Shown: positions 10,039 through 45,926 of the stretch, in pieces
Layout of the letters: every line of letters starts with the position of its first letter
Position numbering within the stretch: the first letter of the stretch is position 1
Source of the DNA: an uncultured Gammaproteobacteria bacterium
GTDB lineage: Bacteria > Patescibacteriota > Microgenomatia > Levybacterales > UBA12049
Length of the DNA stretch: 64,000 nt
Reading direction: 5' to 3'
Assembly: GCA_964553245.1 (NCBI GenBank)
Contig: CAZKJM010000001.1
Coordinates: forward strand, 81,806-145,805
Translations under genes and position numbers: made by a program
The notes under the pieces: generated by a model
What the model saw: only the letters and a program-made list of their open reading frames with translations
Databases searched by the model: none
What the model was told of the DNA's origin: nothing

Positions 10039-10084
10039 AAACGAATTATAGCTAAATAAATCCGAGAAGACAATCTATTTTAAA

Positions 10085-10978: not shown

Positions 10979-10982
10979 AATT

Positions 10983-30685: not shown

Positions 30686-31832
30686 AAAATTTTTTTTGAA
30701 TGATGTTACTGAGAGGAATTGTCTTTAATACTTTAACAATTTTTTCTGCAGAATTACCTATGCCATAAGGATTTCTAATTTTTTTAATTGAGTTTAGAAA
30801 TTTTTTATCATATAGAGCTTTTTTTATAGCTTCCATAATTTCTTTTTTGCTATATCCTACATCTATAACGTTGCTAGACCTTTCTCTGCCTTGTTGTCGG
30901 GTACCAATGTTAACCACTGGAGTTTTAAAGGTAGCTGCCTCATGAATACCAGAGCTTGAATTCCCTATTAAAACAGATACATATCTTAATAAATTGGAAT
31001 ATTTTGTAGAAGATAGTGTTGGATAGTATTTTACATTAAGTTTTTTCAATTGCTTGATAATTCCAGAATATCCAGCATCGTTATTAGGAAATAATATTAT
31101 ACTTTGTATTTTTAAAGTTTTTAAAGCTTCAATCGTTTCAATAATCTGAGAATCTGATTTGTTATTTTCAGTTGTAACAGGATGCTGAATCATTAATGCT
31201 ACTGGTTTTGAAAAATCCACATTGAATTCTTTTTCCAGCTCCTTCTTCGAAATCTTCTTCGAATTTAAAAGGGTATCTATTGATGAACAACCTACTGTAA
31301 AGATAAATTTTGGGTCTTCTCCAATTCTTATTAGTCTTTTTTTAGATAGCATCGTTGCTGGAAAATGTATATGAGCAAATTTACTCATTGCATGTCTTAT
31401 GCTCTCATCGATGCTTCCTGTAAGTTCTCCTCCCTGAATATGAGCAACGGGAATATTCATATGCGCAGCTGCTATAGTTACTGCAAAATTTGCTCCAATA
31501 TCAAATCCCGATAAAACTATATCTGGCTTAACCTTTTCTAGCTCATCGACAATCTTCAACATAAATCTACTCATACCCCTTACCATCTCTGCACCAGAAT
31601 CTTCCCCATTGTCTTTAAACATTTTTATTTCGGAAGAAATTTTAAAACCATCATTTTTTATGTTTTGAATATCATGCCCATGACTTTTTAATAAACAAAT
31701 TCCTGTAACCACAATATATAGTTCAAAAAAAGGATCTTCTTTTATCTTTTCTAAAACAGGCTTGAATCTACTATAATCAGCCCTTCTTTCTATGACTACA
31801 AAAATTTTTCTCATTTCCCTATATCCCTCCAT
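30678..31832 (-). CDS. neuC: UDP-N-acetylglucosamine 2-epimerase (hydrolysing), NeuC/LegG family
   Basis: ADYSRFKPVL...LYIVVTG...GFDIGANFAVTIAAAHMNIPVAHIQGGE...DESIRHAMSKFAHIHFPAT is collinear with NeuC. Confidence 0.8.
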   Translation of the reverse strand: MEGYREMRKIFVVIERRADYSRFKPVLEKIKEDPFFELYIVVTGICLLKSHGHDIQNIKNDGFKISSEIKMFKDNGEDSGAEMVRGMSRFMLKIVDELEKVKPDIVLSGFDIGANFAVTIAAAHMNIPVAHIQGGELTGSIDESIRHAMSKFAHIHFPATMLSKKRLIRIGEDPKFIFTVGCSSIDTLLNSKKISKKELEKEFNVDFSKPVALMIQHPVTTENNKSDSQIIETIEALKTLKIQSIILFPNNDAGYSGIIKQLKKLNVKYYPTLSSTKYSNLLRYVSVLIGNSSSGIHEAATFKTPVVNIGTRQQGRERSSNVIDVGYSKKEIMEAIKKALYDKKFLNSIKKIRNPYGIGNSAEKIVKVLKTIPLSNIIQKKFYE

Positions 31833-32887
31833 TTTAACTGAGTGTTAATAGGCAAGCTTCTAATTATTTTTTTACCTAAAATTTTTCTATAGTCCTTTGC
31901 TTTAATCTCACCTGTTCCAGGTCTCTTTACCCAAATATTTTCTTCTGTGAGTAGATCGCCTTTTTTTATTTCTTTTGTCGTCACGACGCAAGCGTAAGCA
32001 AAATTAATAGTAGGTTGTTCTTCTTTTAAAATATTTTTTGAACCACCAAGTGCCTTATGAATAAAATCCGTACCTTTAATTAATTCACTAAGCTCAGTAG
32101 GATCGATTGAGATAGGAATATCTGGCCCAGGCCACTTCTTGCTCGATGTAAAATGTTTTTCAATTATTGATGCGCCACAACTTATAGCAGCAAAACTAGT
32201 ATAATTTCCTATTGAATGATCGCTTAATCCTACTACGGTATTAGGAAATGTTTTTGACAGATCAACTAGTGCCCCCAATCTTACTTTTTCGTAAGGCGTT
32301 GGATAAATTGAAGTACAATGTAATATTGCAAATTCAGTTTTATAGCTTCTAAGTATCTTAACTGCCTTTTTTATAGAAGGGATATCATTCATTCCCGTAC
32401 TTAGAATAATTGGTTTTTTAAATCTAGCAATATGCTCAATCAATGGATAATTATTGCACTCTCCGGACCCAATTTTGTAAGCATCAACATTCATTCTTTT
32501 CAATCTTTCTGCTGCTGCGCGCGAGAATGGAGTAGATAGATAAATCATACCCTTAGATTCAACATATCTTTTTATCTTAAAATCCTCTTCCTCTGATAAT
32601 TTGCATCTTTCCATAATTTTCCAGATGGTTTCCTTGGTATTTCCAGGCACGACCTTATTTGGAATCATCTCATCCTCTATTACATGTGCCTGAAACTTAA
32701 CGCACTCACAACCTGCATTATGGGCATCATCTATCATCCTAATTGCTTTCTTAATATTTCCTTCGTGATTAATCCCCACTTCTGCAATAATAAATGGCTT
32801 AAAAGAAGGACCAATCTTTCTATCCTTTATTTTTATATACTGCTTTGAATTCATATTAAATCTAAAAAACCCTAAACTGCATAGCAA
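31811..32887 (-). CDS. neuB: nonulosonic acid (N-acetylneuraminate/legionaminate/pseudaminate-type) synthase, NeuB family with C-terminal SAF domain
   Basis: FIIAEVGINHEGNIKKAIRMIDDAHNAGCECVKFQ is the NeuB TIM-barrel N-terminal signature. 358 aa. A C-terminal antifreeze-like (SAF) domain region is present. Confidence 0.85.
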   Translation of the reverse strand: MLCSLGFFRFNMNSKQYIKIKDRKIGPSFKPFIIAEVGINHEGNIKKAIRMIDDAHNAGCECVKFQAHVIEDEMIPNKVVPGNTKETIWKIMERCKLSEEEDFKIKRYVESKGMIYLSTPFSRAAAERLKRMNVDAYKIGSGECNNYPLIEHIARFKKPIILSTGMNDIPSIKKAVKILRSYKTEFAILHCTSIYPTPYEKVRLGALVDLSKTFPNTVVGLSDHSIGNYTSFAAISCGASIIEKHFTSSKKWPGPDIPISIDPTELSELIKGTDFIHKALGGSKNILKEEQPTINFAYACVVTTKEIKKGDLLTEENIWVKRPGTGEIKAKDYRKILGKKIIRSLPINTQLKWRDIGK

Positions 32888-34017
32888 ATTGTATCAGCAA
32901 TTTCCTCAGTCAAGTGTCTAAGATAGAATTTATAATTTTTGTTAATTTTGTAAATCTTTAAAATTATTTTCCAAATGTGATCTGGATGATGATATACAGA
33001 AATTGCTAATTTAGGCTTATGTTTTCTAATTATATCTTTCGCTCCATCAAGCGCCCTATATTCAGAACCTTCTATGTCCATTTTAATTAATGTTGGTTTT
33101 TCTTTACGGTTATGGAAAAAATCATCAATCGTAGTAACATGTATATAATCTTTACCTGCTTTATTCTTTTTAACTACTTCTTTTAAGGAGATACTCGAAT
33201 CAAAACTGTTGTTACAGATAAATTTAACCCATGAATTGGAATTATATACTCCTTCTTTTAATAGGTGTATGTTTTTTAAATTATTTCTTTTTATCAAATC
33301 TCTAATTTTACGAAGATTTTTAGGATCAGGCTCAAATGCATAAATACTATTATAGTTTTTTTTTGCACTTAAGAATGCCTTTATTGTATCTCCATCATAT
33401 GCTCCGCAATCAACATACACTTCATCTTCTTTTAAATGTAAGATATCACTTTCTAAAAATATTGGAAATTTTGATTTAGATTTATCTATGTATTTATAAT
33501 CTCCAGTAATCCTGAATTTTTGTAGATTAGACAGAACCTTTTTTGACTCATCATCGCTTAAAAGCGTCTTCACCTTAAGTATATTAAAGTTATAATTATT
33601 ATTAAAAATTTTTTTATGCATTTTATCAATCTGAGGCAAAGGAAATATTTTTGGAGAAAAAATATTTAATATATAAGGAATAAAAATCGACTTAAACCCA
33701 TTCTTTTTTAGTTGTTTATATATCTGATTTGTATATAAAAGACTACCAATAATTATTAATTGATTTTTTATAACTTTCGCTTCTTTTAAAGAAATAATTT
33801 TTGTATTTTTATATTTTTTTCCTTGAACCTTCAAATCATTGTCAATAAATGCTTCTGTCCTAATACCTTTTTTTTCTAAATTATCGTGATATAACCTACC
33901 AAGACCTCCTGCTCCAAAAATTAAAACTTTTTTTTTACTATCGAAGATTTGCTTATATTGCGAGTATTTATTTTTTTTAAAAAATATTTTTTTTTCAAAG
34001 ATAAACTTATTTAACAT
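32872..34017 (-). CDS. fusion protein: N-terminal NeuD/PglD-like Rossmann-type domain plus C-terminal FkbM-family methyltransferase
   Basis: N-terminal VLIFGAGGLGRLYHDNL resembles the NeuD N-domain IIGAGGHGKV motif. The C-terminal VYVDCGAYDGDTIKAF...IKMDIEGSEYRALDGA...LAISVYH matches FkbM methyltransferase. Confidence 0.65.
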   Translation of the reverse strand: MLNKFIFEKKIFFKKNKYSQYKQIFDSKKKVLIFGAGGLGRLYHDNLEKKGIRTEAFIDNDLKVQGKKYKNTKIISLKEAKVIKNQLIIIGSLLYTNQIYKQLKKNGFKSIFIPYILNIFSPKIFPLPQIDKMHKKIFNNNYNFNILKVKTLLSDDESKKVLSNLQKFRITGDYKYIDKSKSKFPIFLESDILHLKEDEVYVDCGAYDGDTIKAFLSAKKNYNSIYAFEPDPKNLRKIRDLIKRNNLKNIHLLKEGVYNSNSWVKFICNNSFDSSISLKEVVKKNKAGKDYIHVTTIDDFFHNRKEKPTLIKMDIEGSEYRALDGAKDIIRKHKPKLAISVYHHPDHIWKIILKIYKINKNYKFYLRHLTEEIADTICYAV

Positions 34018-34021
34018 TTTA

Positions 34022-34801
34022 CTAAATTATTGTCCAGCCTCCATCAACTATTAAATTATGACCTGTTATGTATGATGAGGCATTCGAAGAAAGAAACAAT
34101 ACGGGCATAATAAAATCTTTTGGAGTTGCCATTCGACCAAGCGGAGTAAATTTTGAATAATTTTTTACGAATCTAGGATTTTGATTATCGAATACTCCAC
34201 CTGGGCTAATACAATTTACCCTTACATTATATTTACCAAAATATGACGCAAAATATCTTGTCATTGTATTAATCCCACCTTTAATTAAAGGATAAGCCGC
34301 AGCGGTAGTCATATTAGTTCCTTCATAAATATTGAAATTTGGTCCTACTAAGCCATATATTGAGCTGAAATTTATAATACTGCCTTTTTTTCTTCTGCTC
34401 ATATCTATTGCAACTTGCTGAGAAACATAATAATAACCACCCAAATGATCCAATAAATTTTTTCGAACAGACTGCAAAGGAGTTTTTTTTATATCAACTT
34501 GCCAATCTAAAGTTCTTGGAAAACTGCAATTAATTAAAACGTCAATATTTTTATACTTATTTTTAAAGTTTTTTAGCAAAAAATCTATGCTATTTTTACT
34601 TGAAATATCAAACTTAACGGTTGTAATTTTTTTCTCTTCCTGGTTTAAGTATTTAACTAACTCTTTATCAATAACCTTATCTGCAATAAGTAATTTACTC
34701 TGTAATTTTACAAAAGCCTTTACAAGCTCTTTTCCTATTAAACCAAAACCCCCAATTAGCAAAATATTTTTATCTTTTAAATCTGAAAAATCGTATCTCA
34801 T
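34022..34801 (-). CDS. SDR-family oxidoreductase (classical short-chain dehydrogenase)
   Basis: NILLIGGFGLIGKELVKAF glycine-rich motif. 259 aa. Confidence 0.6.
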   Translation of the reverse strand: MRYDFSDLKDKNILLIGGFGLIGKELVKAFVKLQSKLLIADKVIDKELVKYLNQEEKKITTVKFDISSKNSIDFLLKNFKNKYKNIDVLINCSFPRTLDWQVDIKKTPLQSVRKNLLDHLGGYYYVSQQVAIDMSRRKKGSIINFSSIYGLVGPNFNIYEGTNMTTAAAYPLIKGGINTMTRYFASYFGKYNVRVNCISPGGVFDNQNPRFVKNYSKFTPLGRMATPKDFIMPVLFLSSNASSYITGHNLIVDGGWTII

Positions 34802-34831
34802 TTTATTTTACCGTATTATATAACGAAATTA

Positions 34832-35821
34832 TTAGTTTATTTCAATCATTTTTTCAAGCCTAACTGACTTATGAATGGCAAGTAATATTTTTAAATTTCT
34901 TATTCCATCCTCTAGTGATATTTCTGCTTCTTTTTTATTCTTAACGCTGTCTATAAAACTTTTTATTTCTGAAGCAAACATATCATTTCTTTCAAATTTT
35001 TTAAATTTAAAGGTCTCAATATTAATATTTCCTTTACGGTTGAACCTATAAACCGTTATTTTTTTTAAAAAATAATCAAATTCAATTCTTCCATTTTCTC
35101 CAATAAAATACCATTGCCTTTTTGGTGGATTTTGCAAAAAATCAAGATGAATATTTGCAATTACGCCATCTTTATATCTGAATAATATCTCTGCCACATC
35201 TTCTGTATTAATTACCATATTAGACAAATGACCAGAGAATGCAAAAACACTTTCTGGACATCCAAGAAAATATGTCAATAAGTCAACTTCGTGACAAAGT
35301 GTAAATATTACCCCTCCACCTAATTCTCTTCTAGCGGAATATCCTTTCGCGTAATCCTCTTTTGGATGCCATAATGGAAGAAATTCACCACATGTAAGAT
35401 TGCAATACAATATCTTTCCAATATAATTCTTATTTAAAAGCTCTTTAATTTTTATTACTGCTGGATGATATCTCATCATAAAACCAACAAATACCAATCT
35501 TTTGCTTGCTCTTATTGTTTCCAATAATTTTTTTGCCTGATTTAAATTAGTACCCAATGGCTTCTCGATAAATATATTGCTTTTATTTTTAGCTGCTAGC
35601 AATGCAAACTTTAAATGCAGTGATGATGGATTTGTAATAAAAACAATATCTGGTTTTTCGGAAAATGCTTTTTTTAAACTATAAAATTGCTTTACGCCTA
35701 AATTATCTTTCTGATAATTTTTTTTAGATCTAAAAGCTATTATATTTTTTTCGCCACATTCTATTAAATTTTTTAAATGTCGCTGGCCAATAGAACCAAG
35801 TCCGCAAAAAAGATACTTCAC
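34832..35821 (-). CDS. Gfo/Idh/MocA-family NAD(P)-dependent oxidoreductase
   Basis: MKYLFCGLGSIGQRHLKNL N-terminal Rossmann fold. 329 aa. A EKP motif region is present (IFIEKPLG). Confidence 0.7.
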   Translation of the reverse strand: MKYLFCGLGSIGQRHLKNLIECGEKNIIAFRSKKNYQKDNLGVKQFYSLKKAFSEKPDIVFITNPSSLHLKFALLAAKNKSNIFIEKPLGTNLNQAKKLLETIRASKRLVFVGFMMRYHPAVIKIKELLNKNYIGKILYCNLTCGEFLPLWHPKEDYAKGYSARRELGGGVIFTLCHEVDLLTYFLGCPESVFAFSGHLSNMVINTEDVAEILFRYKDGVIANIHLDFLQNPPKRQWYFIGENGRIEFDYFLKKITVYRFNRKGNINIETFKFKKFERNDMFASEIKSFIDSVKNKKEAEISLEDGIRNLKILLAIHKSVRLEKMIEIN

Positions 35822-36711
35822 TTTTCGACCTTCCTAATCCTGCTAATAGCAAAATAATCATCTTTTATAAGAAACTGTTTACTTATTATTGATTTATTAT
35901 TTTTTAAATGTTGGTATAATTTTAAGATTCCCTCTTCATATGAATAAAACTTCAATAGCGGCATTTCATTTCTTAATCTAGAATTATCTCCCGTGTATTG
36001 ATAGTTCAATCCTTTATTGACGACTGTTATTTCTGAATTCTTTCTTGAAATTTTATTTATTATTTTTACTATCTCTACCAAGCTTATGGATGTATCAGGT
36101 GTAACATTATAATCAGAGTACGTCACATTTGCCTTAAGAAAGAAATCTAAAACCTTTATCAAATCATCTATAAATAAATAGTCGAAAACCACATCTTGCT
36201 TTATAGATATCGGTAGATTAAAAATATTCTTCGCAACTGAATTTGATATAAATTTTTTTAAATAGTCTTCTCCCGGTCCATATATCCCAAAAAGCCTTAA
36301 GTTGGTAATATTTTTTACCTTACTCCCTTTTTCTTGTATTAAAAACTTCGCAAACCCATATGAATCCTGTGGCACATATTTTCCCCAATCTGTTTCTTTT
36401 ACTTTAACTAAGTTCCTGTTTTTCGCATATTCTGCTCCTGAACCAAAGTGAATTATCTTCTTAACAACATCTGAATTTCTAAAGATACTTTCAAACATTC
36501 TTAAATTATCTTCAAAACCCTCTGACCCATTAACTATTGCAGAATGTATAATCGCATCTATCTTTTTTAATTTTAAATATTTTCTTAACAATAGTTCATC
36601 TTTAATATCCAATTCATTATGAGAGGGTGAAAAAAGAATGTGTTTTTTCTTCAACTTCGATATAATATTCTTGCCTATAAAACCTCTTCCTCCTGTTATT
36701 AAAATTTTCAT
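35818..36711 (-). CDS. NAD-dependent epimerase/dehydratase or reductase
   Basis: MKILITGGRGFIGKNII. 297 aa. Confidence 0.6.
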   Translation of the reverse strand: MKILITGGRGFIGKNIISKLKKKHILFSPSHNELDIKDELLLRKYLKLKKIDAIIHSAIVNGSEGFEDNLRMFESIFRNSDVVKKIIHFGSGAEYAKNRNLVKVKETDWGKYVPQDSYGFAKFLIQEKGSKVKNITNLRLFGIYGPGEDYLKKFISNSVAKNIFNLPISIKQDVVFDYLFIDDLIKVLDFFLKANVTYSDYNVTPDTSISLVEIVKIINKISRKNSEITVVNKGLNYQYTGDNSRLRNEMPLLKFYSYEEGILKLYQHLKNNKSIISKQFLIKDDYFAISRIRKVEK

Positions 36712-36715: not shown

Positions 36716-38497
36716 TTATTTTTTAAATAAGTTCATATTTTTATTAAACTCTTTCCTGTCTAAAAAGGGATATAGATCTTCCAATGGTCTTGATTCTAAT
36801 ATCCCGTCTTTCCTTTGATAAGTTGATGTTCTTGGAATTCTTTCCTGATTATATTCAATATTAACTTCGCATAACGCCGGTGAATTATTTTTCAAGACAT
36901 CTCTTATCTTTTTTTCTACTTCGTCATTATTTGAAATGCAATAATATTTAAGCTTATATGCGCTTGCAATATCTTTAAAATCTGGATTTATAACACCTGT
37001 ATTCTTATCTGCTCCAACTAATCTCCCTTTAAACAAATTATTTTGCGTATCTCTAATTGATTTATATCCTTCATTGTTAAAAACAAAAATTTTCAGTGGT
37101 AATTTATTAAAAGAGATCGTGCTAAGCTCTTGGATATTAAATTGAAAACTACCATCACCGGTGACTACAATTGTTTTTTTTCTGTTATTCGCTAAACAAG
37201 CCCCAATTCCAGCTGGTAAACACCAACCCATTTGTCCGAAATTTTTATTAACATAAAGTCTCTGATTTTTCTTGATCTTAAAAGACTGAATAATACTAAC
37301 TATGTCTTGACCCATTCCTGTAACTACGGTATTCTCAGACATAAGTAATTCTGAAAGTTTATACACAAAATAATAACTGTTAACATAATTTGTTTTTTTT
37401 AAATGGAGAGGATCTAAAATCCCATATCTATTTTTCCAATCACTACAAGCTCTAGCCCACTTTTTATCAAATTTAACATTTAACTTACGCGATATCTCAT
37501 ATATTTTTTTAAGAAAAAATGCTGCATCTGTATTTATCTTCAAATCAATTTCCATATCGTCTTTTTCCAGCTCTGATTTGTCTATATTAACCATAATAAT
37601 TTTTGCATTACGTCCAAAATCTTTTCTGTTAAATCCTGTCGATGCCACATTTAAACTCGCACCGATTGAAATAATTAAATCTGAATTCTGAAGCACAAAA
37701 TTTGCTCTTCGCTGTCCTTTTGGACCATATCTTCCCATATATGACGGGAGATCCTCAGAAAACATATCCAAACCGTTTTCATCCGTAACAACAGGAACTT
37801 TAAAATTATTAATAAATTTATGAAGTATTTGAATCCCGCCTGCTAATCTAATTCCGTTTCCCGCAATAATTAATGGTCTACTAGATTCTTTTAATAACTT
37901 AGTTAGTTTACCAAATTGTTTTTTATCAAAAATATTTTTTTTTCTAGGAGGAATAAATTGTGTAAAACTGCTCTTTTCTATTTCAGCATTCTGTACATCA
38001 AGTGGAATACTGATCCAAACTGGCCCTGGTCTGCCTGATGTAGCCTCATAAAAGGCCTTTTGCAAGTTAAACTGGACATCAGAAGGATTTAAAAGTTGAA
38101 CTGCATATTTTGTAATCGGTTTTACCATGTCTATTATATTTATTTCTTGCGGTCCTTTTTGCCTTGATTTTGTGTAATCTGCAATTATTTCTTTTTTTAC
38201 CTGTCCTGAAATTACAATCATTGGAATAGAGTCAACCCAAGCAGCGGCCACACCTGTTATCGCATTAGTTCCACCTGGGCCAGATGTAACAACACATGCC
38301 GACACGCCATTTTTCATCCTAGCATAACTTTCTGCGCAAGTAGCTGAAGCTTGCTCATGGAAATTAGCACAATATCTAATGTTCTTATTCCTATAGATGG
38401 CATCAAGAAGATACATTATTCCCCCACCAGATACCAAGAAGATGTCTTTTATCCCTTTCTTTTCTAGAAAACTTATTACAAATTCTGAAACGGTCAT
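36716..38497 (-). CDS. thiamine-pyrophosphate-dependent enzyme, acetolactate-synthase-large-subunit-like (YerE-like candidate)
   Basis: 593 aa. N-terminal TPP Pyr domain (FLVSGGGIMYLLDAIY), a central domain, and a C-terminal TPP-binding domain with GDGSFQFNIQEL (GDG-x24-30-N motif). Confidence 0.75.
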   Translation of the reverse strand: MTVSEFVISFLEKKGIKDIFLVSGGGIMYLLDAIYRNKNIRYCANFHEQASATCAESYARMKNGVSACVVTSGPGGTNAITGVAAAWVDSIPMIVISGQVKKEIIADYTKSRQKGPQEINIIDMVKPITKYAVQLLNPSDVQFNLQKAFYEATSGRPGPVWISIPLDVQNAEIEKSSFTQFIPPRKKNIFDKKQFGKLTKLLKESSRPLIIAGNGIRLAGGIQILHKFINNFKVPVVTDENGLDMFSEDLPSYMGRYGPKGQRRANFVLQNSDLIISIGASLNVASTGFNRKDFGRNAKIIMVNIDKSELEKDDMEIDLKINTDAAFFLKKIYEISRKLNVKFDKKWARACSDWKNRYGILDPLHLKKTNYVNSYYFVYKLSELLMSENTVVTGMGQDIVSIIQSFKIKKNQRLYVNKNFGQMGWCLPAGIGACLANNRKKTIVVTGDGSFQFNIQELSTISFNKLPLKIFVFNNEGYKSIRDTQNNLFKGRLVGADKNTGVINPDFKDIASAYKLKYYCISNNDEVEKKIRDVLKNNSPALCEVNIEYNQERIPRTSTYQRKDGILESRPLEDLYPFLDRKEFNKNMNLFKK

Positions 38498-39414
38498 TGT
38501 TTAATACTTTTTAAAATGGAACTCTCAATTTGATCAATTGATAATTCATTAACTTTTCTCATATACTCTTGTGAACCGATGCTTCTAGTAAAATGGTCTC
38601 TTACTCCTAGTCTTCGAAAGGGAATCTTTATTAAGTTTTCTGCAAGTACTTCAGCAACTAGACTTCCTAATCCTCCTGTTAAAAAATGTTCTTCAAGTGT
38701 AAAAATTCCTCCAGTCTTTTTTGCTGATTCCACAATAATATCAATATCTAAAGGTTTAATCGTATGCATACTAATAAGCCTTGAGGCAATATTTTTTTTA
38801 TCTAATTTCTCGCATACTTCAAGACCAGTACTTAACATACTACCAGTGGTTATCAGAGTAACATCTTTTCCTTCTCGTATAAGGCGACCTTTTCCCATCT
38901 TAAGGGAAAAATTTTTATTCCAGGTAATTTTTTTATCCAATCTTCCTAATCTAATATATACAGGTCCCTTTATCTTTATTGCTTCTTTTGTAACAAATCC
39001 AACCTCCATAGAATCTGCTGGGGAAAAAATTGTCATATTGGGGAGCGTTCTTAAAATGCCAATATCTTCGAGGGCATGATGAGTATGTCCATATGGACCA
39101 TATGTGAATCCTGCTCCCATTCCAACAATTTTTACGTTTAGATTTTGGTAGCAAATATCATTTCTTATTTGTTCAAAATTCCTCATTGTACAAAATGGAA
39201 TTATTGAATAAATGATAGGAATTTTATCTTCAATTGCCATACCCGCTGCAACTCCTGTCATATTCTGCTCTGCAATTCCTGCATTTAAATATTGTTTAGG
39301 AAATTGATTAATAAAACTTTCAAAAACTGAAAATCCTAAATCACCTGTTAATAAATGAATTTTACAATTTTTCTTTGCTAACTCTTCTAATGTTTTTATA
39401 AAAGTTGTTCTCAT
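38494..39414 (-). CDS. split transketolase, C-terminal (pyrimidine-binding plus C-terminal domain) subunit
   Basis: 306 aa resembling TktB-type subunits (LTGDLGFSVFESF...AEQNMTGVAAGMA...). It is adjacent to the N-terminal subunit gene. Confidence 0.75.
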   Translation of the reverse strand: MRTTFIKTLEELAKKNCKIHLLTGDLGFSVFESFINQFPKQYLNAGIAEQNMTGVAAGMAIEDKIPIIYSIIPFCTMRNFEQIRNDICYQNLNVKIVGMGAGFTYGPYGHTHHALEDIGILRTLPNMTIFSPADSMEVGFVTKEAIKIKGPVYIRLGRLDKKITWNKNFSLKMGKGRLIREGKDVTLITTGSMLSTGLEVCEKLDKKNIASRLISMHTIKPLDIDIIVESAKKTGGIFTLEEHFLTGGLGSLVAEVLAENLIKIPFRRLGVRDHFTRSIGSQEYMRKVNELSIDQIESSILKSIKQ

Positions 39415-40223
39415 TCTATTATTTTAAGTTTTCTTAAATTATCCTCTGTAATTGACTTATAATGCGATTCAACAGTTGCCTCATTCTCAATAACTCCACC
39501 TTTTCCTTTAATCGTATGTGCTATTAAAACAGAAGGCTTATCTTTTTCAAACGGTAAATTTTCAAGAGATGAGATAATTTCCTCAATATTATGACCATTA
39601 GCTTCCTTTGTTGCCCATCCAAAACATTCCCATTTTTTTGCAAAAGGTTCAAGATTTAAAACCTCATTCGTTGCCCCAAAGCCCTGAAAACCATTGTAGT
39701 CAATTATTGCAATTAAATTATCAAGCTTATGATGTCCCGAGAAAAGGATTGCTTCCCAAACAGATCCCTCATCGCATTCGCCATCGGAAAGAAGAACGAA
39801 TACTTTATGCTTTTTTTTGTCAAGTTTGCCTACGTATGCCATTCCTGCAGCCATAGACAATCCATGTCCCAGTGATCCGGCTGAAACCTCTACGCCAGGA
39901 ACGCAATTTCTGGTTGAGTGACCAGGTAATTTTCCTCCATCTTTTTCATAACTTTTAAGGATCTCTTTATTAAAAAAACCTCTCTCTGCTAAAACAGCAT
40001 AAAGTGCCTTTACATCATGTGCCTTGCTTAGAATTAGCCTATCTCTGTTTACGTTGTTTGGGTCATTTGGGAAAATGTTTAATATTTTAAAGTATAAAGA
40101 AACTAAAATTTCTACGCTTGATAAAGAACCTCCAACATGTGCGCTTTTAGCACGATAGCTCATGAGCAGAATTTCCTTTCTTACATTTTCGCAGATTTTT
40201 AAAAGCTTTCTGTCTTCAGGCAT
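39411..40223 (-). CDS. split transketolase, N-terminal (TPP-binding) subunit
   Basis: 270 aa with SAHVGGSLSSVEILVSLYF...GSLGHGLSMAAGMA...LLSDGECDEG. Confidence 0.75.
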   Translation of the reverse strand: MPEDRKLLKICENVRKEILLMSYRAKSAHVGGSLSSVEILVSLYFKILNIFPNDPNNVNRDRLILSKAHDVKALYAVLAERGFFNKEILKSYEKDGGKLPGHSTRNCVPGVEVSAGSLGHGLSMAAGMAYVGKLDKKKHKVFVLLSDGECDEGSVWEAILFSGHHKLDNLIAIIDYNGFQGFGATNEVLNLEPFAKKWECFGWATKEANGHNIEEIISSLENLPFEKDKPSVLIAHTIKGKGGVIENEATVESHYKSITEDNLRKLKIIE

Positions 40224-40239: not shown

Positions 40240-42324
40240 TTATTTTACTGATTCGTAAAGAGATATTGTATTAAATGAATTTTTATTAATTTGCTTGTAT
40301 TTCTCTTCTATTATCTTTTCGATTTCCGGAGTTAAAAACTCATATTCCCCAACATGATATATTTTTGTTACAAAAACTTTATATTTTTTATTATCTCTTA
40401 AAAATTTAATTAGCCTATCTACATCCTCTTTTAAGAAAAGCTCCATTAATCCTGGTGAATCAAAAGCAGAAACTGTATCAGATTCTGCATAATATACACT
40501 TGGAAAACTAGAAATTATAATAATTTTTTCCTTTTTGTTTGTATGTTTTTTAATAAAATTTATCTCTGATATTATCTCTCTTGAATTATCTGGATCGTTA
40601 GTTAATTTTTTAAAAATATATTTAACATTGTTTACATTTCCCACTGAAAAATTGGTAAAATTTTCAACCCAATAAGGTAGATACGATAACATAAATAAAA
40701 ATAAAATAATAAAAAAGATAAAGTTGTGATAAAGTTTTAACCCATACTTTTTATAAAAATAAAATAGGTCATCGGTATATATAATTAATAAAAGCACAAA
40801 GCTATACATCGGCCCCCACAAATTTGAATCAACACTCCTTCCTTGGTAAAAAGAAAACGTTCCCAAACCAAGAATTGATAATAAAAATATAATGACTGGT
40901 CGGTCTTTGTTATCGCATTTTTCTATAAACGCTTGTATTGAATATATCAAACCTATTATATATGTAATAAAAACGATATTCCACGGATGAATAAGCTTCA
41001 TTTTTATCATATTAAATCCCATTAGATAATAATGGGTCTGGGATTTAAGGAATAAATTTAAATCTGGAAATATTCCTCTTGTTATGAAAATATACAAGGA
41101 ATAAATAATCAATAATGCTAAAAAGATAAATATAATTTTTACAAAATGTTTAAATATTTCTTTTATCGCCGACCTAAAGCCGGATCGAAAAATTTCGTAA
41201 TATGAAATTGAAGCTAACCATGTAATAAAAATGATTATTCCGGTATCTGCATTCCATAAAACGGAAGCTGAGGCAACTATTGAGTTAATATAATAAGTTA
41301 AGCTACTTTTATTTTTAAAATATAAATATGAAATAAATATAAACAATGAAGGGAAAAAAATCCTAATAGGCACAAACTGAAAATAAGGATCATTTTGAAA
41401 ACCTGGCAGTATATATCCACCAGCCATAAAATAAAAAATAAAATAAAAAGATATACCAATAAAACTTATAAATCTATTTTTAATAAAATATTTAATAAAC
41501 AAAGAAATTATCGTTATGGATACTCCTGAAAGGAATGCCATAATAACCGTAAATTTAAAAACACTAATTCCACCTGTCAACTTAAATAATGGCTCAAGAA
41601 AATGAGGATATAACCCGTATAGATTTATAAAATTATTAGTGAGTAAAGCTTTACCCGCATAAGACTGAGACACGGAATAAAAAACAGTTTCTAAATTATG
41701 CGCTCTTTCGTAATTTGATATTCCTGTTACAATTAAATCTTCTACATCGAAAATTTTTTGTGAAAAGATAGAAAAAAATATTATAAATATTAATCCTTTA
41801 AATAAATAATTTGTAATTTTTGTTGACAATCGGATTTTTTTTATTATTTTAATTTTTAAAAAAACAAAAGCTGTTAGTAATGTAATGGAAAAGTATAAAA
41901 GGGGATATTTGTAAGCATAGCTGTTTTTAATGTAGTCATTAAATTCTTTAAAATCATAATAAATTAAAAGTAACGTTACCACTAAGCTTAATAAAAAAGA
42001 AAGTAAATATAAATAACTTATTCTTTTTTTTATTTTATTTAAAACTTTTTTAAAAATATAAAAAGATAAATATGAAAAAATAGGTAATAGAAATATTGAT
42101 GATATATATTGAATCCTCTCTATAGGTTCAGGGGAAAAATAAATTCTATCTCTAACTGACAGCCTAATTGAAGAATTAATTATTTCTTGCACATTTGGAT
42201 CGTAGTATTTTCGAATTATAAATATTGTTATTAACAATAATATAATTGTAAGTAAAGTACTAAAAAAGAAAACTATAAAACGTTTGTACTCAGAAGTTAA
42301 TAAAATATCTTTTTTGCTAGACAC
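40240..42324 (-). CDS. polytopic membrane protein of unknown function (694 aa; many TM helices, C-terminal soluble domain)
   Basis: Hydrophobicity pattern only. It could be a polymerase or GT-C-like protein, but no motif was recognized. Confidence 0.4.
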   Translation of the reverse strand: MSSKKDILLTSEYKRFIVFFFSTLLTIILLLITIFIIRKYYDPNVQEIINSSIRLSVRDRIYFSPEPIERIQYISSIFLLPIFSYLSFYIFKKVLNKIKKRISYLYLLSFLLSLVVTLLLIYYDFKEFNDYIKNSYAYKYPLLYFSITLLTAFVFLKIKIIKKIRLSTKITNYLFKGLIFIIFFSIFSQKIFDVEDLIVTGISNYERAHNLETVFYSVSQSYAGKALLTNNFINLYGLYPHFLEPLFKLTGGISVFKFTVIMAFLSGVSITIISLFIKYFIKNRFISFIGISFYFIFYFMAGGYILPGFQNDPYFQFVPIRIFFPSLFIFISYLYFKNKSSLTYYINSIVASASVLWNADTGIIIFITWLASISYYEIFRSGFRSAIKEIFKHFVKIIFIFLALLIIYSLYIFITRGIFPDLNLFLKSQTHYYLMGFNMIKMKLIHPWNIVFITYIIGLIYSIQAFIEKCDNKDRPVIIFLLSILGLGTFSFYQGRSVDSNLWGPMYSFVLLLIIYTDDLFYFYKKYGLKLYHNFIFFIILFLFMLSYLPYWVENFTNFSVGNVNNVKYIFKKLTNDPDNSREIISEINFIKKHTNKKEKIIIISSFPSVYYAESDTVSAFDSPGLMELFLKEDVDRLIKFLRDNKKYKVFVTKIYHVGEYEFLTPEIEKIIEEKYKQINKNSFNTISLYESVK

Positions 42325-42376
42325 AGGATTATCTTACAATAAATGCTTATTTTCAACAATTAATGATAAAACTTTA

Positions 42377-43447
42377 TTATCTAATAGTTTCTATGCTTTT
42401 AGGGTTAGCTTTTTTAAACCAATCAACTGTTAATTGAATGCCCTTGTCTAAATCATACTTAGGACTCCAGCCAATTATTTTTTTTGCTAAACCATTATCT
42501 AAAGCTCTAGTTGGCACACCTTCTGGCTTTGTTTTATCAAATATTATTTTCTTTGGATAAAAATTTGTAGCATTAAATATCATTTCTACAACATCTTTTA
42601 TCTTATATCTTTTCGAAGTTCCTAAATTAACCACAGTTGCATCCTTTATTTTTTCGCATGCTAATAATGTACCGGAAACTATATCATCTAAATACGTAAA
42701 ATCTCTATCTTGCTCTCCTGTTCCCCATACAATATAAGGATCTTTTTTCTCTATAGCTCTTTTAATTAAAGCAATAATAGCATGAGTATCATTTTCGCCT
42801 GGACCATATGCAGTTACATATCTAGTAATCGATGATTTTAAACCATACTGTTTATAGTAAGCTTTTAATGTAAGCTCGCCCATTAATTTTGCCCATCCAT
42901 ATTCTTGATCTGCATTTGCCCAATTATTGTTAAATGCATCTTTTTCTTTTAATAAATACTTAGAGTTGTAACCTTTTTGTAAATCAAGAGGATAAACACA
43001 TGCAGAGCTTGCAAAAGCTACTCTCTCTACCTTTGCAAGATAAGAAGCATGAAAAACGTTTGTATTTATGGCAAAATTAGTTGAACAATCTGCGGGGTGA
43101 GTATCTATATAACCCCTTCCTCCAAAATTACAAGCCAAATGAAAAACAATGTTTTGTCCTTTAATTATGGAGATTATATCGCATAAATTTAGACAATCTG
43201 CAAAAATAAACTTATGACCTTTGTTGGTAGATATCTTTTTATTCTTATAGCTACTAAACTCAATATTTTTATCCTTAAAAATTCTTTTAATATTTGTCAA
43301 TAACCCAGTAGAAAGATTATCTACTATTGTAACTTTAGCTCCTAGATCTATTAAATTCCTAACAATGTTACTACCAATAAATCCAGCACCGCCTGTTACG
43401 CAAACTTTTTTATTTTTATAAAAACTATTTTTCGTATTACTATTCAT
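42377..43447 (-). CDS. NAD-dependent nucleotide-sugar epimerase/dehydratase
   Basis: KKVCVTGGAGFIGSNIVRNL...ASSACVYP...YGWAKL (catalytic Y-x3-K). Confidence 0.65.
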   Translation of the reverse strand: MNSNTKNSFYKNKKVCVTGGAGFIGSNIVRNLIDLGAKVTIVDNLSTGLLTNIKRIFKDKNIEFSSYKNKKISTNKGHKFIFADCLNLCDIISIIKGQNIVFHLACNFGGRGYIDTHPADCSTNFAINTNVFHASYLAKVERVAFASSACVYPLDLQKGYNSKYLLKEKDAFNNNWANADQEYGWAKLMGELTLKAYYKQYGLKSSITRYVTAYGPGENDTHAIIALIKRAIEKKDPYIVWGTGEQDRDFTYLDDIVSGTLLACEKIKDATVVNLGTSKRYKIKDVVEMIFNATNFYPKKIIFDKTKPEGVPTRALDNGLAKKIIGWSPKYDLDKGIQLTVDWFKKANPKSIETIR

Positions 43448-43477: not shown

Positions 43478-45220
43478 ATGATAAGACTATTTATTAATTT
43501 TTTCAATAACAAAAATGTGTTACGGGTATTCATTACAACTATTATTGGTTTAATACTATCTATTATTGTTAAAGAATATGGAACACTTCATTTTACAGGA
43601 ATGGATTATGGGGTACTTACGAGCGCTGCTTATCAATATTTCTTGGGATATAAACCTTATTCAGACATAATAACTGGTACACCACCTGTATATTTAATAT
43701 TAGGAAAAATATCCTTCGACCTGTTTGGAGTAAAATTTGCTTCCTTTGTATACATTACTGCAATTGTAACATTTTTCACATTCTTGTATTTGGTCTGGGT
43801 TTGGTACAAAATCTCTAATTCGTTAATCAAATCATTGATCTATTCTTTAACAGCTGAAATTGTAATAATTTTTACTTTTTCAACAATTAATTATAATCGA
43901 TTTTCGCTTATTTCAGCAACGATGTATATTTTAACCCTCATTTACTTTATAAAACAAAAAAGGCAATTATTTTCATCATTTTTATTAATAATTCAAGGAG
44001 CAATATTGCTTTTAGTGAAAGCTAATATTGCAGTTTCATTAATTCTTTTCTCTTTTATAATTTTAATTAGACTCAATAACAAAATAAAAACTTTAATAAT
44101 TTATACAACATCTTTCTTAGTATTCTTATTATTACTATCTTTTTCTAATATAAATATTTTTAATTTAATTAAAAATTATTTATGGCATGGGGGAAGAGCT
44201 TTTGATCCAAGCGTCTGGAAGATATTTATCTTAAATGGATGGGAAGTAAAACAAACATTTATTTTTTTTACTCCAATTACGGTAATTTTATTAATCTCAC
44301 TAATCGCAGTTGTAATAAATAAGTCAATCTTTAAAAAATGTAATTTACAGTTTGTATATTTTCAAATAATTTTATTGTCAGTTTTAATAGGAATAATCGG
44401 TCTTATAACAAATAACGATCTTAATTTTGTCGATGGTTTTCTAATACTTAATGGCATAATTTTAATACCCATAATTTACAAAAATATTCTCCAGAATACT
44501 AACATCTATAAAATTTATAATATCGTAATCTATGCTACATGCAGTTTTCTAATTATATACGGATTAATTATAGGAATTAATAGAGTTAATATTTCTGAGG
44601 GAGGACCAAGCTTCTTCTATGAATATGCTTATTATCCAAGCGAAAAATGCTTATTTTTATCTGATACTAAATGTCGACAACTCATCATAGGATCTACTGC
44701 AAAATTATTAAATTTAAATGTTCAAGACACAGGAAATTTTAGATACTTAGTTAAATCTAAATACTCTTTTTTTAATTCTATGCTTATTGAGCAAAATTTA
44801 GAAGAAACAGAAGATGAAATAAATAAGGTAATATTATTTTTTAAAAAAAATGGTGTAAATAAAGATAAAATAGGCTTTGGTCCAAGGATTGATTTTAATT
44901 ATGCAACTTTTAAAATTAAACCTCCTAAAGGTCCGCTATGGTGGGAAGCATTTAGTTATGTAAAACCAGATGAAAAGTTAATATCTATGGTTCAAAAATA
45001 CAGAAATAATAATAAATTGATTTTTATTCATCTAAAACAAATTTATCAATTTTATCCTCCTTTATTATATGGTGGATATATAATTAGCGAACATGATCTA
45101 GTTCAAACAAGCATGTTAGATATCTGGTTTAACAAGCAAGATAAGCAAACACAAAAAATAAAAGAAGCTTATAAAAAAATGCTAAAAGATGAAGGTATTG
45201 AATATATCGAATCCGAATAG
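43478..45220 (+). CDS. polytopic membrane protein, GT-C-like (first loop HFTGMDYGVL...TPPVYLIL), C-terminal soluble domain
   Basis: 580 aa with about 12 TM helices, on the plus strand. Confidence 0.45.
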   Translation: MIRLFINFFNNKNVLRVFITTIIGLILSIIVKEYGTLHFTGMDYGVLTSAAYQYFLGYKPYSDIITGTPPVYLILGKISFDLFGVKFASFVYITAIVTFFTFLYLVWVWYKISNSLIKSLIYSLTAEIVIIFTFSTINYNRFSLISATMYILTLIYFIKQKRQLFSSFLLIIQGAILLLVKANIAVSLILFSFIILIRLNNKIKTLIIYTTSFLVFLLLLSFSNINIFNLIKNYLWHGGRAFDPSVWKIFILNGWEVKQTFIFFTPITVILLISLIAVVINKSIFKKCNLQFVYFQIILLSVLIGIIGLITNNDLNFVDGFLILNGIILIPIIYKNILQNTNIYKIYNIVIYATCSFLIIYGLIIGINRVNISEGGPSFFYEYAYYPSEKCLFLSDTKCRQLIIGSTAKLLNLNVQDTGNFRYLVKSKYSFFNSMLIEQNLEETEDEINKVILFFKKNGVNKDKIGFGPRIDFNYATFKIKPPKGPLWWEAFSYVKPDEKLISMVQKYRNNNKLIFIHLKQIYQFYPPLLYGGYIISEHDLVQTSMLDIWFNKQDKQTQKIKEAYKKMLKDEGIEYIESE

Positions 45221-45221
45221 A

Positions 45222-45926
45222 CTAATCTGCAAATTTTATTTTTAGCAATCCTACTCCATTGCTTAACGCGATAGATGGTATTTTTTTAAAATGATAAACC
45301 TGCGTTTGTCCATCAATTCTATTTCTGTGATTTATCTGTATTTCATTTAATTCAATATTTCTTTTAATGCAAGTAGCAACGAATCCCCACCAAAAACCTT
45401 CCCTCATTCTATTTAGTAATTTTAAATGAGGAAGAATTTTTGTTTTTTTAAATAAAACAAAAGGTGCACTCGGATCATGAATTGTGCATTTGAATAAAAG
45501 CTTTAACAACAAAAAGAAAGATTTTGAATATAAAATTCGACTTCTTGAATCAGATCTATTAACTCTCCAACCAATTAAAACTTTATTTTTATCTCTTTTT
45601 TTCCAAAACTTTATTACATCCTTTGCGTCGCATTGACCGTCTGAATCAATACAGAGTACGTATTCAGAATTTGATAATTTAATTCCATCTATTACTGCTG
45701 GTCCGTATCCTCTTCTATATGGTTTTTGACTTAAAATTATCGGGTATTGATTTTTTATTTTTGACAATAGTTCCTTAGTCCCATCAGTTGATCCATCCTC
45801 GCAAATAATAAAATTATGAGATATTTTTGTTTTTTTTAAAACTTTTTCCCATTCATTTAGCACCTTTTTTATAGATTTTTTTTCATTATAAACAGGTAAG
45901 ATAATATCTATATTTTTTCTTTTCAT
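45222..45926 (-). CDS. glycosyltransferase family 2, DPM1/GtrB-like polyprenyl-phosphate sugar synthase-like (no C-terminal TM helices)
   Basis: IDIILPVYNEKKSIKKVL...FIICEDGSTDGT...IDSDGQCD. 234 aa. Confidence 0.65.
   Translation of the reverse strand: MKRKNIDIILPVYNEKKSIKKVLNEWEKVLKKTKISHNFIICEDGSTDGTKELLSKIKNQYPIILSQKPYRRGYGPAVIDGIKLSNSEYVLCIDSDGQCDAKDVIKFWKKRDKNKVLIGWRVNRSDSRSRILYSKSFFLLLKLLFKCTIHDPSAPFVLFKKTKILPHLKLLNRMREGFWWGFVATCIKRNIELNEIQINHRNRIDGQTQVYHFKKIPSIALSNGVGLLKIKFAD

Follow-up and report, generated by a model that had tools for sequence, protein, structure and literature searches.

The DNA analysed here, a window of 64 kb, houses a glycan island of about 55 kb, whose host is probably an uncultured candidate-phyla-radiation (CPR) bacterium and which carries the genes of a ThDP enzyme and of a split transketolase (TK). 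The features considered in the following are:

21165-28897, minus strand: downstream backbone of the TK module, GT2, membrane proteins and GT2 (orthologues in loci L007/L008)
28894-35821, minus strand: nonulosonic-acid (NulO) cassette (Pfam/NCBIfam, gene order)
35818-36711, minus strand: extended-SDR reductase, 297 aa, here SDR297 (Pfam Epimerase/RmlD_sub_bind)
36716-38497, minus strand: probable YerE/JanthE-like ThDP carboligase, 593 aa (Pfam, PDB match, synteny)
38494-39414, minus strand: TktC, C-terminal subunit of the split transketolase (Pyr and C domain), 306 aa (Pfam, PDB match)
39411-40223, minus strand: TktN, N-terminal subunit of the split transketolase (PP domain), 270 aa (Pfam Transketolase_N, PDB match)
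40240-43447, minus strand: 694-aa polytopic membrane protein and GDP-mannose-3,5-epimerase-like SDR of 356 aa (TK-module neighbours)
45923-46879, minus strand: CDP-glucose 4,6-dehydratase-like SDR (TIGR02622)
46861-47637, minus strand: glucose-1-phosphate cytidylyltransferase-like gene (TIGR02623)
48700-49950, plus strand: E1/ColD-type PMP-dependent 3-dehydrase (RfbH NF011936, PDB match)

An ORF check recovered, at the same positions, the three ORFs that an earlier note on this DNA had reported, namely the 593-aa ThDP enzyme and the two-gene split transketolase. The 4-nt coupling claimed there held for TktN/TktC and for TktC/ThDP enzyme, each pair overlapping by 4 nt. The SDR gene (35818-36711) is set off from the ThDP gene by a 4-nt gap with no overlap.

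The 593-aa enzyme is composed of the Pfam domains TPP_enzyme_N/M/C, TktC of Transket_pyr and Transketolase_C, and TktN of Transketolase_N, with E-values from 1e-28 to 1e-41. A catalytic Glu together with a GDG-X(24-27)-NN motif, within TPP_N/TPP_M/TPP_C, served to define the YerE-like ThDP carboligases of the DC superfamily; the Glu lies in FHEQ at about residues 46-49, and the ThDP motif noticed previously is present in the sequence as GDGSFQFN...FNNEGY. In the PDB the best match was JanthE (8rph, 368 bits), compared with 237 bits for E. coli AHAS I and 236 for 5ahk, which we take to be PpYerE. The identity with JanthE is 33% over 595 aa and the two proteins have in common a C-terminal tail that is missing from AHAS. 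Among the NCBIfam models the top score was obtained with TIGR00118, 386 bits for a cut-off of 538, the other IlvB equivalogs being further below theirs, and no ilvN, ilvC or ilvD was found when the ORFs with 100 aa or more were scanned from about 2 to 64 kb of the window. On its sequence, the ThDP enzyme is most likely a glycan-branching carboligase and not a housekeeping acetolactate synthase.

The order cytidylyltransferase, dehydratase, ThDP enzyme, SDR297 was found in the related loci L001, L004, L092-L094 and L096, and in an interrupted version in L106; the contigs of L089/L090 begin at the dehydratase gene, which directly adjoins the ThDP gene upstream there and in other loci and is followed by the rest of the order. 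An E1-type 3-dehydrase lies near this conserved order in the related loci with enough flank, and an E1-ThDP arrangement characterizes L099-L104, a ThDP clade of about 40% identity. By analogy, the gene order around the ThDP enzyme reads as yersiniose logic. The proposal that the enzyme is YerE-like and not IlvB-like was thus borne out by the JanthE match, by the missed IlvB cut-offs and by the conserved synteny with CDP-sugar and reductase genes. Wherever a related locus continues beyond the ThDP gene, SDR297 follows, mostly directly and with 45-59% identity, as it does in the window; it resembles characterised reductases weakly, and we propose it as a YerF-like partner reducing the branch carbonyl.

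The CDP-dideoxyhexose module that had been suspected about 8 kb away is indeed represented by cytidylyltransferase-like, 4,6-dehydratase-like and RfbH/E1-like genes. The first, which would supply CDP-glucose, matches TIGR02623 over its full length with 273 bits (cut-off 300), and its orthologues, 60-70% identical, lie directly 5′ of ThDP or TK modules in related loci. The dehydratase-like gene reaches 216 bits with TIGR02622 (cut-off 278). The E1-like protein scores 346 bits with RfbH NF011936, has Yersinia E1 (3bcx, 235 bits) as its best PDB match and carries the catalytic His of dehydrases instead of the aminotransferase Lys. No Fe-S cysteine motif was found in this protein, so that 3-deoxygenation would need a ColD-like route, and no E3 reductase was found beside the CDP-sugar genes of the window.

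The genes following SDR297 comprise Gfo/Idh/MocA, a PtmA-like SDR, an FkbM methyltransferase, NeuB (TIGR03569, 364 bits, just short of the cut-off of 400), NeuC, a hydrolysing 2-epimerase (TIGR03568, 394 bits for a cut-off of 236), a further SDR and a PseB-like dehydratase. The epimerase-type SDR, Gfo/Idh/MocA and PtmA-like SDR described as flanking genes were all confirmed by Pfam/NCBIfam; the last two, however, are members of this NulO cassette and not genes of the branching step. In L089/L090 the NulO genes come after the ThDP-SDR pair in the order of the window, and a NeuB cassette, in Neu-, Leg-, Pse- or 9-deoxy-like variants, is located 3′ of every YerE-like/reductase pair. A CMP-NulO synthetase (PF02348) was not found in the 64-kb window or in L001, L004, L008 and L089-L097, where 10-20 kb of flank per related locus was searched when available. 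Furthermore, the position of the cassette is filled in the locus of JanthE by an aldolase that has been proposed as the source of the keto-acid donor. Taken together, the cassette's position, the negative search for a CMP-activating enzyme and this aldolase suggest, by analogy, that the donor of the ThDP enzyme could be a sialic-acid-like keto acid, and we propose the NulO cassette as the source of a gamma-hydroxy alpha-keto acid.

The best PDB matches of the transketolase subunits are from the Carboxydothermus split TK (6yaj for TktC, 6yak for TktN). The PP, Pyr and C domains are kept, as are the catalytic Glu and the equivalents of His30, His69 and His103, while TktC carries GMGAGFTYGPYGHTHH where the canonical motif is xTHAGxxVGEDGxSHQ; this replaces the phosphate-binding His by Gly and Asp477 (yeast) by Tyr. 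Within GMGAGFTYGPYG of the window enzyme, Gly stands at His469 (yeast; human 416) and Tyr at Asp477 (human 424). By established transketolase enzymology, an enzyme that has lost these two residues would be severely impaired in the normal reaction with phosphorylated aldoses. Both were missing from 120/120 top homologues, with Tyr at the Asp position in 119 of them; 136 of the 150 best representatives at 50% identity were non-canonical, and a neighbour-joining tree gave this clade a support of 79/92. The split transketolase belongs, then, to a large non-canonical clade. TktN reads SDGE and LGHG instead of GDGE and LGQG, and in the nearest TK relatives Gln stands at the position of His263. The Arg pair which binds the substrate phosphate is retained, leaving room for a sugar-phosphate substrate.

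All the closest TK homologues examined (55-68% identity, CPR) lie in glycan loci. This agrees with the active-site substitutions and with the earlier view that the protein is not the canonical pentose-phosphate enzyme. In L006, L010 and L013 the cytidylyltransferase and dehydratase genes precede, with intervening genes, TktN, TktC and E1, the TK occupying the place of YerE, so that here and in the window the TK pair lies among genes forming an NDP-keto-sugar. In an unbiased genome sample, 6/21 non-canonical TKs but 0/53 canonical ones had two or more glycan gene families no farther than 7 kb away (p = 3e-4), an enrichment in which clear glycan neighbours accompanied only those 6 of the 21. Orthologues of the 694-aa membrane protein (13 TM-like segments; 44% identity) and of the 356-aa SDR (GME-like by PDB search; 62%) flank the TK pair in L007. 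In both L007 and L008, the backbone of GT2, polytopic membrane proteins of 1140, 107 and 680 aa, and GT2 comes immediately 3′ of TktC, at an identity of 40-59%.

The ThDP enzyme and the split transketolase are independent modules, interleaved in the window. The ThDP enzyme occurs without the TK in L001, L004 and L089-L096, and the TK without the ThDP enzyme in L006, L007, L010 and L013. Since the dehydratase gene abuts the ThDP gene in L089/L090 and TktC abuts GT2 in L007, the window looks like a mosaic of two interleaved modules. We consider it rather probable that these are two separate ThDP enzymes of glycan biosynthesis, which form carbon-carbon bonds and most likely make branched or very long sugars; for their substrates, products and order of steps we infer the following scheme. 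A common pool of CDP-4-keto-3,6-dideoxyhexose, made by the cytidylyltransferase, the 4,6-dehydratase and the E1/ColD-type 3-dehydrase, probably feeds both. The ThDP enzyme would decarboxylate an alpha-keto acid on its cofactor and attach the acyl-anion equivalent so formed at the C-4 keto group of the CDP-sugar, after which SDR297 would reduce the new side-chain ketone in the fashion of YerF. Pyruvate as donor would give a yersiniose-type C2 branch, and the free nonulosonic acid of the NeuB/NeuC cassette a C8 branch; we regard the two donors as about equally likely. The split transketolase most likely moves a two-carbon ketol (hydroxyacetyl) unit onto an NDP-keto-sugar, as modelled on the proposal for the miharamycin/amipurimycin split TKs, and its product may then be handed to GT2 and GT-C-like membrane proteins.

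Several other readings compete with this scheme. That both proteins are core metabolism, IlvB and Tkt merely located in the island, agrees with generic annotations such as acetolactate synthase and transketolase, but we find it scarcely credible and largely refuted, given the scores far short of the IlvB cut-offs, the absence of ilv genes from the window ORFs, the non-canonical TK active site and the glycan-gene synteny kept across many loci. The earlier suggestion of a functional pair, in which the ThDP enzyme and the transketolase would be dedicated to each other and act sequentially on one sugar, draws on the translational coupling through 4-nt overlaps in the window and on the presence of both enzymes in L008, L097 and L040; we judge it quite improbable, as most relatives of each enzyme stand without the other and the gene order differs in each of the loci which hold both. 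It is also improbable, although slightly less so, that the transketolase acts on sugar phosphates, either making an NDP-sugar precursor (e.g. heptulose or octulose phosphate) or working as a plain pentose-phosphate enzyme. Such a role would suit the retained catalytic Glu, three active-site His and Arg pair, the approximately 50% identity to the split TK of Carboxydothermus, an enzyme of ordinary biochemistry, and the occurrence of split TKs in many CPR bacteria (L046). Nevertheless, the His469 and Asp477 equivalents are lost, the canonical CPR split TKs of the L046 type keep both residues and are only about 42% identical, no sugar-phosphate isomerase or kinase adjoins the CPR TKs, and the synteny with GT2, E1 and CDP-hexose genes is tight.

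Concerning the donor, we give a little less than an even chance to the reading in which pyruvate yields a C2 branch of yersiniose type, while the NulO, made independently by the NeuB/NeuC cassette, receives its CMP from an enzyme whose gene lies elsewhere and becomes an ordinary residue of the same glycan. Pyruvate is the donor of YerE itself (PMC9306805), mixes of several sugars are routine in glycan islands, many GTs are present in the window, and no NeuB lies near the ThDP genes of the 40% clade (L099-L104). The points against it are that each of the four NulO cassette types follows a ThDP-SDR pair, with no CMP-NulO synthetase found in these loci, and that a donor-forming aldolase is located at the corresponding position next to JanthE. 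The scheme of two separate enzymes has a further, more daring form, which we put forward only tentatively as a doubtful but possible one: in these CPR loci the NeuB-made acid would not be CMP-activated but decarboxylated by the YerE-like enzyme and grafted as a C8 chain onto C-4 of a CDP-3,6-dideoxy-4-ketohexose, giving a branched amino sugar of about C14, and the split-TK clade would add another, widely distributed class to the enzymes that branch sugars at carbon.

To our knowledge, ThDP-dependent C-branching of sugars is biochemically known for only a handful of YerE-like enzymes. The gene context of the YerE-like family points to nonulosonic acids as a new donor class; if this is true, the unifying scheme for acyl-branched sugars would stretch to much larger skeletons, and a branched sugar of about C14 would exceed caryophyllose (C12) and gastriose (C13). 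If the branching role is true for the split-TK clade, it would be found outside Streptomyces antibiotic clusters. The clade itself, large, non-canonical and defined by sequence, is linked with NDP-keto-sugar genes in several phyla and offers soluble candidates for TK-mediated branching. Genome-reduced CPR bacteria would be spending on elaborate surface sugars, which bears on host attachment, and enzymes forming tertiary alcohols are wanted as biocatalysts.

Compared with known systems, the window enzyme shares with IlvB/IlvG/IlvI the superfamily, the domain order and the HEQ and GDG...NN motifs, but it scores below their cut-offs, no regulatory-subunit or ilv neighbours were found in the window, and it has the extra JanthE-like C-terminal tail. 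The putative PpYerE (5ahk) matches it no better than AHAS does. YerE/YerF of Yersinia pseudotuberculosis (yersiniose A) resemble the window by gene content: a three-domain ThDP enzyme adjoins a reductase using NAD(P)H, the accompanying genes cover CDP-glucose formation, 4,6-dehydration and E1-type 3-deoxygenation, and the C-4 keto group of a CDP-3,6-dideoxyhexose is the proposed point of attack. The window differs in that no E3 was found beside its CDP-sugar genes, its E1-like protein shows no Fe-S motif and a NulO cassette is attached.

JanthE of Janthinobacterium sp. HH01, the protein of 8rph, is a YerE-like enzyme accepting ketones (PMC12188165; PMC12247030). Like the window enzyme, which it matches over its full length, it has the C-terminal tail and a basic residue at the K567 position, and its locus runs NTP-transferase, dehydratase, E1, JanthE, SDR, acetaldehyde dehydrogenase and aldolase, the first five in an order shared with the window. 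In contrast, JanthE carries a CDG motif in place of the canonical GDG, its hot-spot V121/Y268/P293/Y297 is P/K/A/F in the window enzyme, and its acetaldehyde-dehydrogenase/aldolase pair is replaced by NeuB/NeuC-type genes. The unifying scheme for acyl-branched sugars brings together a ThDP enzyme and a reductase with a deoxy-keto sugar and with cluster-encoded synthesis of a gamma-hydroxy alpha-keto acid as donor (PMC9306805). Its logic, as for ErwE, MMAR_2332 and MyGE (erwiniose, caryophyllose, gastriose), matches the window by gene context, except that the donor here would be a C9 acid from a PEP-dependent synthase of the NeuB type, where the known scheme has C4-C8 acids produced by a pyruvate aldolase. 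No case of a NeuB-type C9-acid donor for acyl-branched sugars was found in the literature examined.

For the transketolase, the Carboxydothermus hydrogenoformans enzyme (6yaj/6yak) is likewise built from two subunits, is about 50% identical and has in common with the window enzyme the residues for ThDP binding and the catalytic Glu/His. In the window enzyme, Gly replaces the His that binds phosphate and Tyr the Asp by which the C2-OH of the acceptor is read, while SDG stands in place of GDG and LGHG in place of LGQG. A role of split-gene TKs in keto-sugar branching has so far been a proposal, none having been characterised in vitro (PMC12247030), and the bioinformatic candidates of Krug et al., as summarized in that review, number 13, all from Streptomycetes. 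The miharamycin/amipurimycin split TKs are like the window by gene context, being two-gene TKs among keto-sugar genes for which hydroxyacetyl transfer to a ketone has been proposed; in contrast to these Streptomyces candidates, the window-type TKs are located in cell-surface glycan loci of CPR bacteria and of other phyla.

The earlier note had named three open reading frames, a thiamine-diphosphate-dependent (TPP, ThDP) enzyme and the two halves of a split transketolase (TK), and their coordinates proved exact: all three are encoded on the minus strand, with 4-nt overlaps at both the TktN/TktC and the TktC/TPP junction.

The split transketolase, the TPP enzyme and the genes that follow (window positions)
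39411-40223, minus strand: TktN, 270 aa, N-terminal half of the split TK (Pfam Transketolase_N)
38494-39414, minus strand: TktC, 306 aa, C-terminal half of the split TK (Pfam Transket_pyr and Transketolase_C)
36716-38497, minus strand: TPP enzyme, 593 aa (Pfam TPP_enzyme_N/M/C)
35818-36711, minus strand: 297-aa SDR
28894-35821, minus strand: nonulosonic acid (NulO) cassette

The window is AT-rich (~29% G+C) and carries most of its genes on the minus strand. The TPP and TK genes belong to a run of ~18 close-packed co-directional genes, from 43447 down to 21165, which is enclosed by a glycan island (~6 kb to ~62 kb) rich in GT2, GT4, PMT_2-like, flippase and sugar-nucleotide genes. Named homologues of the TPP and TK proteins come from Roizmanbacteria, Levybacteria, Gottesmanbacteria, Saccharimonadales and other Patescibacteria, and judged by these names the source probably belongs to the candidate phyla radiation (CPR). 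Around the TK genes, G+C rises to 34.6% in the 2-kb bin 38001-40000, compared with ~25-30% in the neighbouring bins, which could come from coding constraint or from recent acquisition.

The best NCBIfam model for the TPP enzyme was that of biosynthetic acetolactate synthase, at 386 bits against a cut-off of 538, and the other IlvB models missed by more. Among solved structures the top match was 8rph (368 bits, E = 5e-109), while E. coli AHAS I and 5ahk reached ~237 bits each. The 8rph entry is the structure of JanthE, which comes from Janthinobacterium sp. HH01, is YerE-like and joins keto-acid donors to ketones (PMC12188165; PMC12247030). JanthE and the window enzyme align over their full length with 33% identity over 595 residues, share a C-terminal tail that is absent from AHAS, and have a basic residue conserved at the position of JanthE K567. 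Judged by these alignments, the window enzyme is YerE-like and not an IlvB. Phosphonopyruvate decarboxylase was also considered and was rejected on account of the full three-domain architecture and the lack of a PEP mutase nearby.

The split TK matched the Carboxydothermus split TK best among solved structures, with 245 and 228 bits for its two chains. In an alignment with this enzyme, human TK and ~200 homologues, it keeps the catalytic Glu and the equivalents of His30, His69 and His103, and two further motifs are altered (GDGE to SDGE, LGQG to LGHG). Where canonical TKs have the phosphate-binding His (yeast 469, human 416) the window enzyme has Gly, and Tyr occupies the site of the Asp that reads the acceptor C2-hydroxyl (yeast 477, human 424), so that GMGAGFTYGPYGHTHH stands in place of xTHAGxxVGEDGxSHQ. 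Both canonical residues are missing in all 120 closest homologues; a search of 1.84 billion proteins showed the same pattern in 136 of the 150 top-scoring representatives of 50%-identity clusters. In a neighbour-joining tree the TKs without both residues formed one clade (39/40) with a bootstrap of 79/100, and its CPR core had a support of 92/100. In L046, a canonical CPR split TK from Nomurabacteria, both residues are present and the identity is just ~42%. On this sequence evidence the window TK is classed as non-canonical. It may nevertheless use a sugar-phosphate substrate, because the phosphate-binding arginines are kept: the first is retained, and the second is Arg in the window and Arg or Lys in relatives. 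A separate non-canonical subgroup, with the motif GISGGVSYGALGMSHHSLQD, occurs in Paenibacillus, Bacillus and relatives (L032, L043, L049, L064, L077, L084); no glycan-type neighbours of this subgroup were detected using the window proteins.

The three closest TK relatives that were looked up, and L010 from a genome scan, are 55-67% identical, and each of them sits in a glycan locus. The window and two of the homologous loci, L007 and L008, share a backbone of TktN, TktC, GT2, a ~1150-aa protein, a 107-aa protein and a ~680-aa protein, the large ones being polytopic membrane proteins; upstream, L007 also has a 356-aa SDR and a large membrane protein, as in the window. In L006, L010 and L013 (Margulisiibacteriota) a cytidylyltransferase and a CDP-dehydratase are followed, after intervening genes, by TktN, TktC and an E1-type dehydrase, and the TK therefore stands at the place that YerE has elsewhere. 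A further arrangement was seen in Binatota, Planctomycetota, Burkholderiales and Actinomycetota, with Bac_transf (the initiating phosphoglycosyl transferase), an optional TylF-like methyltransferase, TktN, TktC and a Lys-type DegT (e.g. L009, L012, L016, L029, ~7000-12200). As an unbiased control we used a broad split-TK sample from a genome-contig search with TktC: at least two glycan gene families were present within 7 kb of 6/21 non-canonical versus 0/53 canonical TKs (Fisher p = 3e-4). In our literature search, no work on transketolases in O-antigen clusters came up. The specialised-sugar reading of the earlier note was right in spirit: both enzymes would form C-C bonds on sugars and would not belong to core metabolism.

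Two other TK roles were weighed. An AHBA-type role (Rif15-like, with Gfo/Idh/MocA and DegT) was rejected in the absence of any observed aminoDAHP, aminoDHQ or AHBA-synthase gene; formation of an N-glycolyl donor is given low weight because no lipoyl or carrier protein lies nearby.

Several very large proteins of the window have no Pfam match. Those of 680, 1140, 694, 1060 and 580 aa (22112-27893, 40240-42324, 13587-16769, 43478-45220) have 10-21 predicted membrane spans and may be unclassified GT-C-like glycosyltransferases; in further CPR loci the 680-, 1140- and 694-aa proteins are likewise found beside TktN and TktC. The 107-aa protein (24151-24474, minus strand) has three membrane-like segments, and in L007 and L008 it lies between two giant membrane proteins and is 56-59% conserved.

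The earlier note had put both enzymes and all their neighbours into a single pathway, and this did not hold. In L089 and L090, whose TPP enzyme is 65% identical to that of the window, the dehydratase directly adjoins the TPP gene, and in L007 the GT2 directly adjoins TktC. The window has its TK block (GT2, a plus-strand membrane protein, the 356-aa SDR, a membrane protein, TktN, TktC) between dehydratase and TPP gene, and its TPP/NulO cassette between TktC and the usual GT2 partner of TktC; two modules are therefore interleaved. Co-occurrence of the TPP enzyme and the TK in one locus was confined to the window, L008, L097 and L040, each time with a different order, and the two are no obligate pair. 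L040, a SAR11-type single-cell genome (Pelagibacteraceae) of a very different lineage, carries consecutive genes for TktN, TktC, an SDR, a TPP enzyme with 33% identity and a PfkB-kinase/cytidylyltransferase fusion (6358-12151). The window holds a single set of cytidylyltransferase, dehydratase and 3-dehydrase genes, and the simplest reading is that one CDP-keto-sugar pool feeds two branching enzymes.

CDP-sugar genes (score against model cut-off)
46861-47637: G1P cytidylyltransferase-like (TIGR02623, 273 bits, cut-off 300)
45923-46879: CDP-glucose 4,6-dehydratase-like (TIGR02622, 216 bits, cut-off 278)
48700-49950, plus strand: RfbH-like, E1-type 3-dehydrase (RfbH, 346 bits, cut-off 423)

The context of the TPP enzyme was sampled by two homologue look-ups and one metagenome scan. 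Relatives with at least 53% identity and enough flank had, in every locus, a G1P-cytidylyltransferase, a CDP-glucose 4,6-dehydratase, the TPP enzyme and the 297-aa SDR in this order, and each had an RfbH-like gene in the same locus; in a distant clade (~40% identity; L099, L104) cytidylyltransferase, dehydratase, RfbH-like gene and TPP enzyme are directly consecutive. The nearest solved relative of the window RfbH-like protein is the Yersinia E1 dehydrase, and the protein has His at the site of the aminotransferase Lys, a replacement that is the hallmark of a 3-dehydrase. It is without the Fe-S cysteine motif (WGRSSSLFSESED in place of WGRDCYCAPGCDNT) and would consequently need a ColD-like route, without an E3 reductase; no E3 reductase was found in the window. 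This Cys-less subtype also occurs in L097 and L099-L104, and the motif is kept in other loci.

TPP-enzyme paralogues, two or three per locus and 40-44% identical to the window enzyme, were seen in L004/L093 (18246-21776) and L001/L092 (4271-8049), and an SDR and an FkbM-like methyltransferase accompany one of these paralogues; L110, a JanthE-type locus of Pseudomonas extremaustralis, has two TPP enzymes and FkbM. In the ~40% identity clade the TPP gene is followed by a D-2-hydroxyacid dehydrogenase (L106, 11787-12794) or a GNAT-DegT fusion (L099, 8065-9798; L104, 11798-13525), which hints either at other donors (e.g. hydroxypyruvate) or at a branch that becomes aminated and N-acetylated.

Within the CPR clade a NulO cassette always follows the TPP-SDR pair, and its type differs.

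Genes following the TPP-SDR pair
Neu-like (L094): NeuB, NeuC only
Leg-like (L001, L092): Gfo, PtmA-SDR, NeuB, NeuC, PglD-like acetyltransferase, DegT, PseB-like
Pse-like (L004, L093, L096): PseB-like, DegT, PseG/H-like fusion, NeuB-family
Window-type (window, L089, L090): Gfo, PtmA-like SDR, FkbM, NeuB, NeuC, SDR, PseB-like

The FkbM-family methyltransferase of the window (32872-34017, minus strand), encoded between the PtmA-like SDR and NeuB as in L089/L090, carries a PglD_N/NeuD-like Rossmann segment at its N-terminus, indicated by weak matches in Pfam and NCBIfam.

NulOs are gamma-hydroxy alpha-keto acids, and a NulO could itself serve as donor of the TPP enzyme, which would give a C8 branch. 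ErwE has been shown to use donors of this chemical class, and MMAR_2332 and MyGE are proposed to do so (PMC9306805); the JanthE locus has a donor-forming aldolase at the place held here by NeuB. Pfam scans and precomputed Pfam lists gave no CMP-NulO synthetase (PF02348) in the 64-kb window or the NulO-cassette loci; CMP-sugar synthetases were also sought by phmmer with E. coli KdsB as query, again without a match, but this search has limited sensitivity and the absence rests mainly on the Pfam scans. The equivalent of the JanthE hot-spot Y268 varies among the NulO-type subgroups (K, S, G/V or M), a variation that shared ancestry could cause. Alternatively, the TPP enzyme would take pyruvate as its donor, and the NulO would be a normal constituent of the glycan, with a gene located farther off providing its activation; we consider the two readings about equally likely. 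No literature link between ThDP enzymes and nonulosonic acids was found, and a NulO donor would be new within the literature searched.

The locus offers two directly testable ideas: that a NulO serves as donor in a ThDP reaction, and that a TK clade defined by its sequence branches sugars. For miharamycin and amipurimycin, split-gene TKs have been proposed to move hydroxyacetyl onto a keto sugar (Bjarnesen et al. review, PMC12247030); the review counts 13 further split-gene candidates from bioinformatics (Krug et al.), all from Streptomycetes and none characterised. The TK clade described here would carry the TK-branching idea to the surface glycans of many phyla. In yersiniose biosynthesis, YerE puts an activated C2 unit on CDP-3,6-dideoxy-4-keto-glucose and YerF reduces the product (PMC9306805), a gene logic that the TPP-enzyme loci match. 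The JanthE locus, with NTP-transferase, dehydratase, E1 (His and Cys motif), JanthE, SDR, acetaldehyde dehydrogenase and HMGL/DmpG-type aldolase in this order, has the layout that Steitz et al. describe for the erwiniose type.
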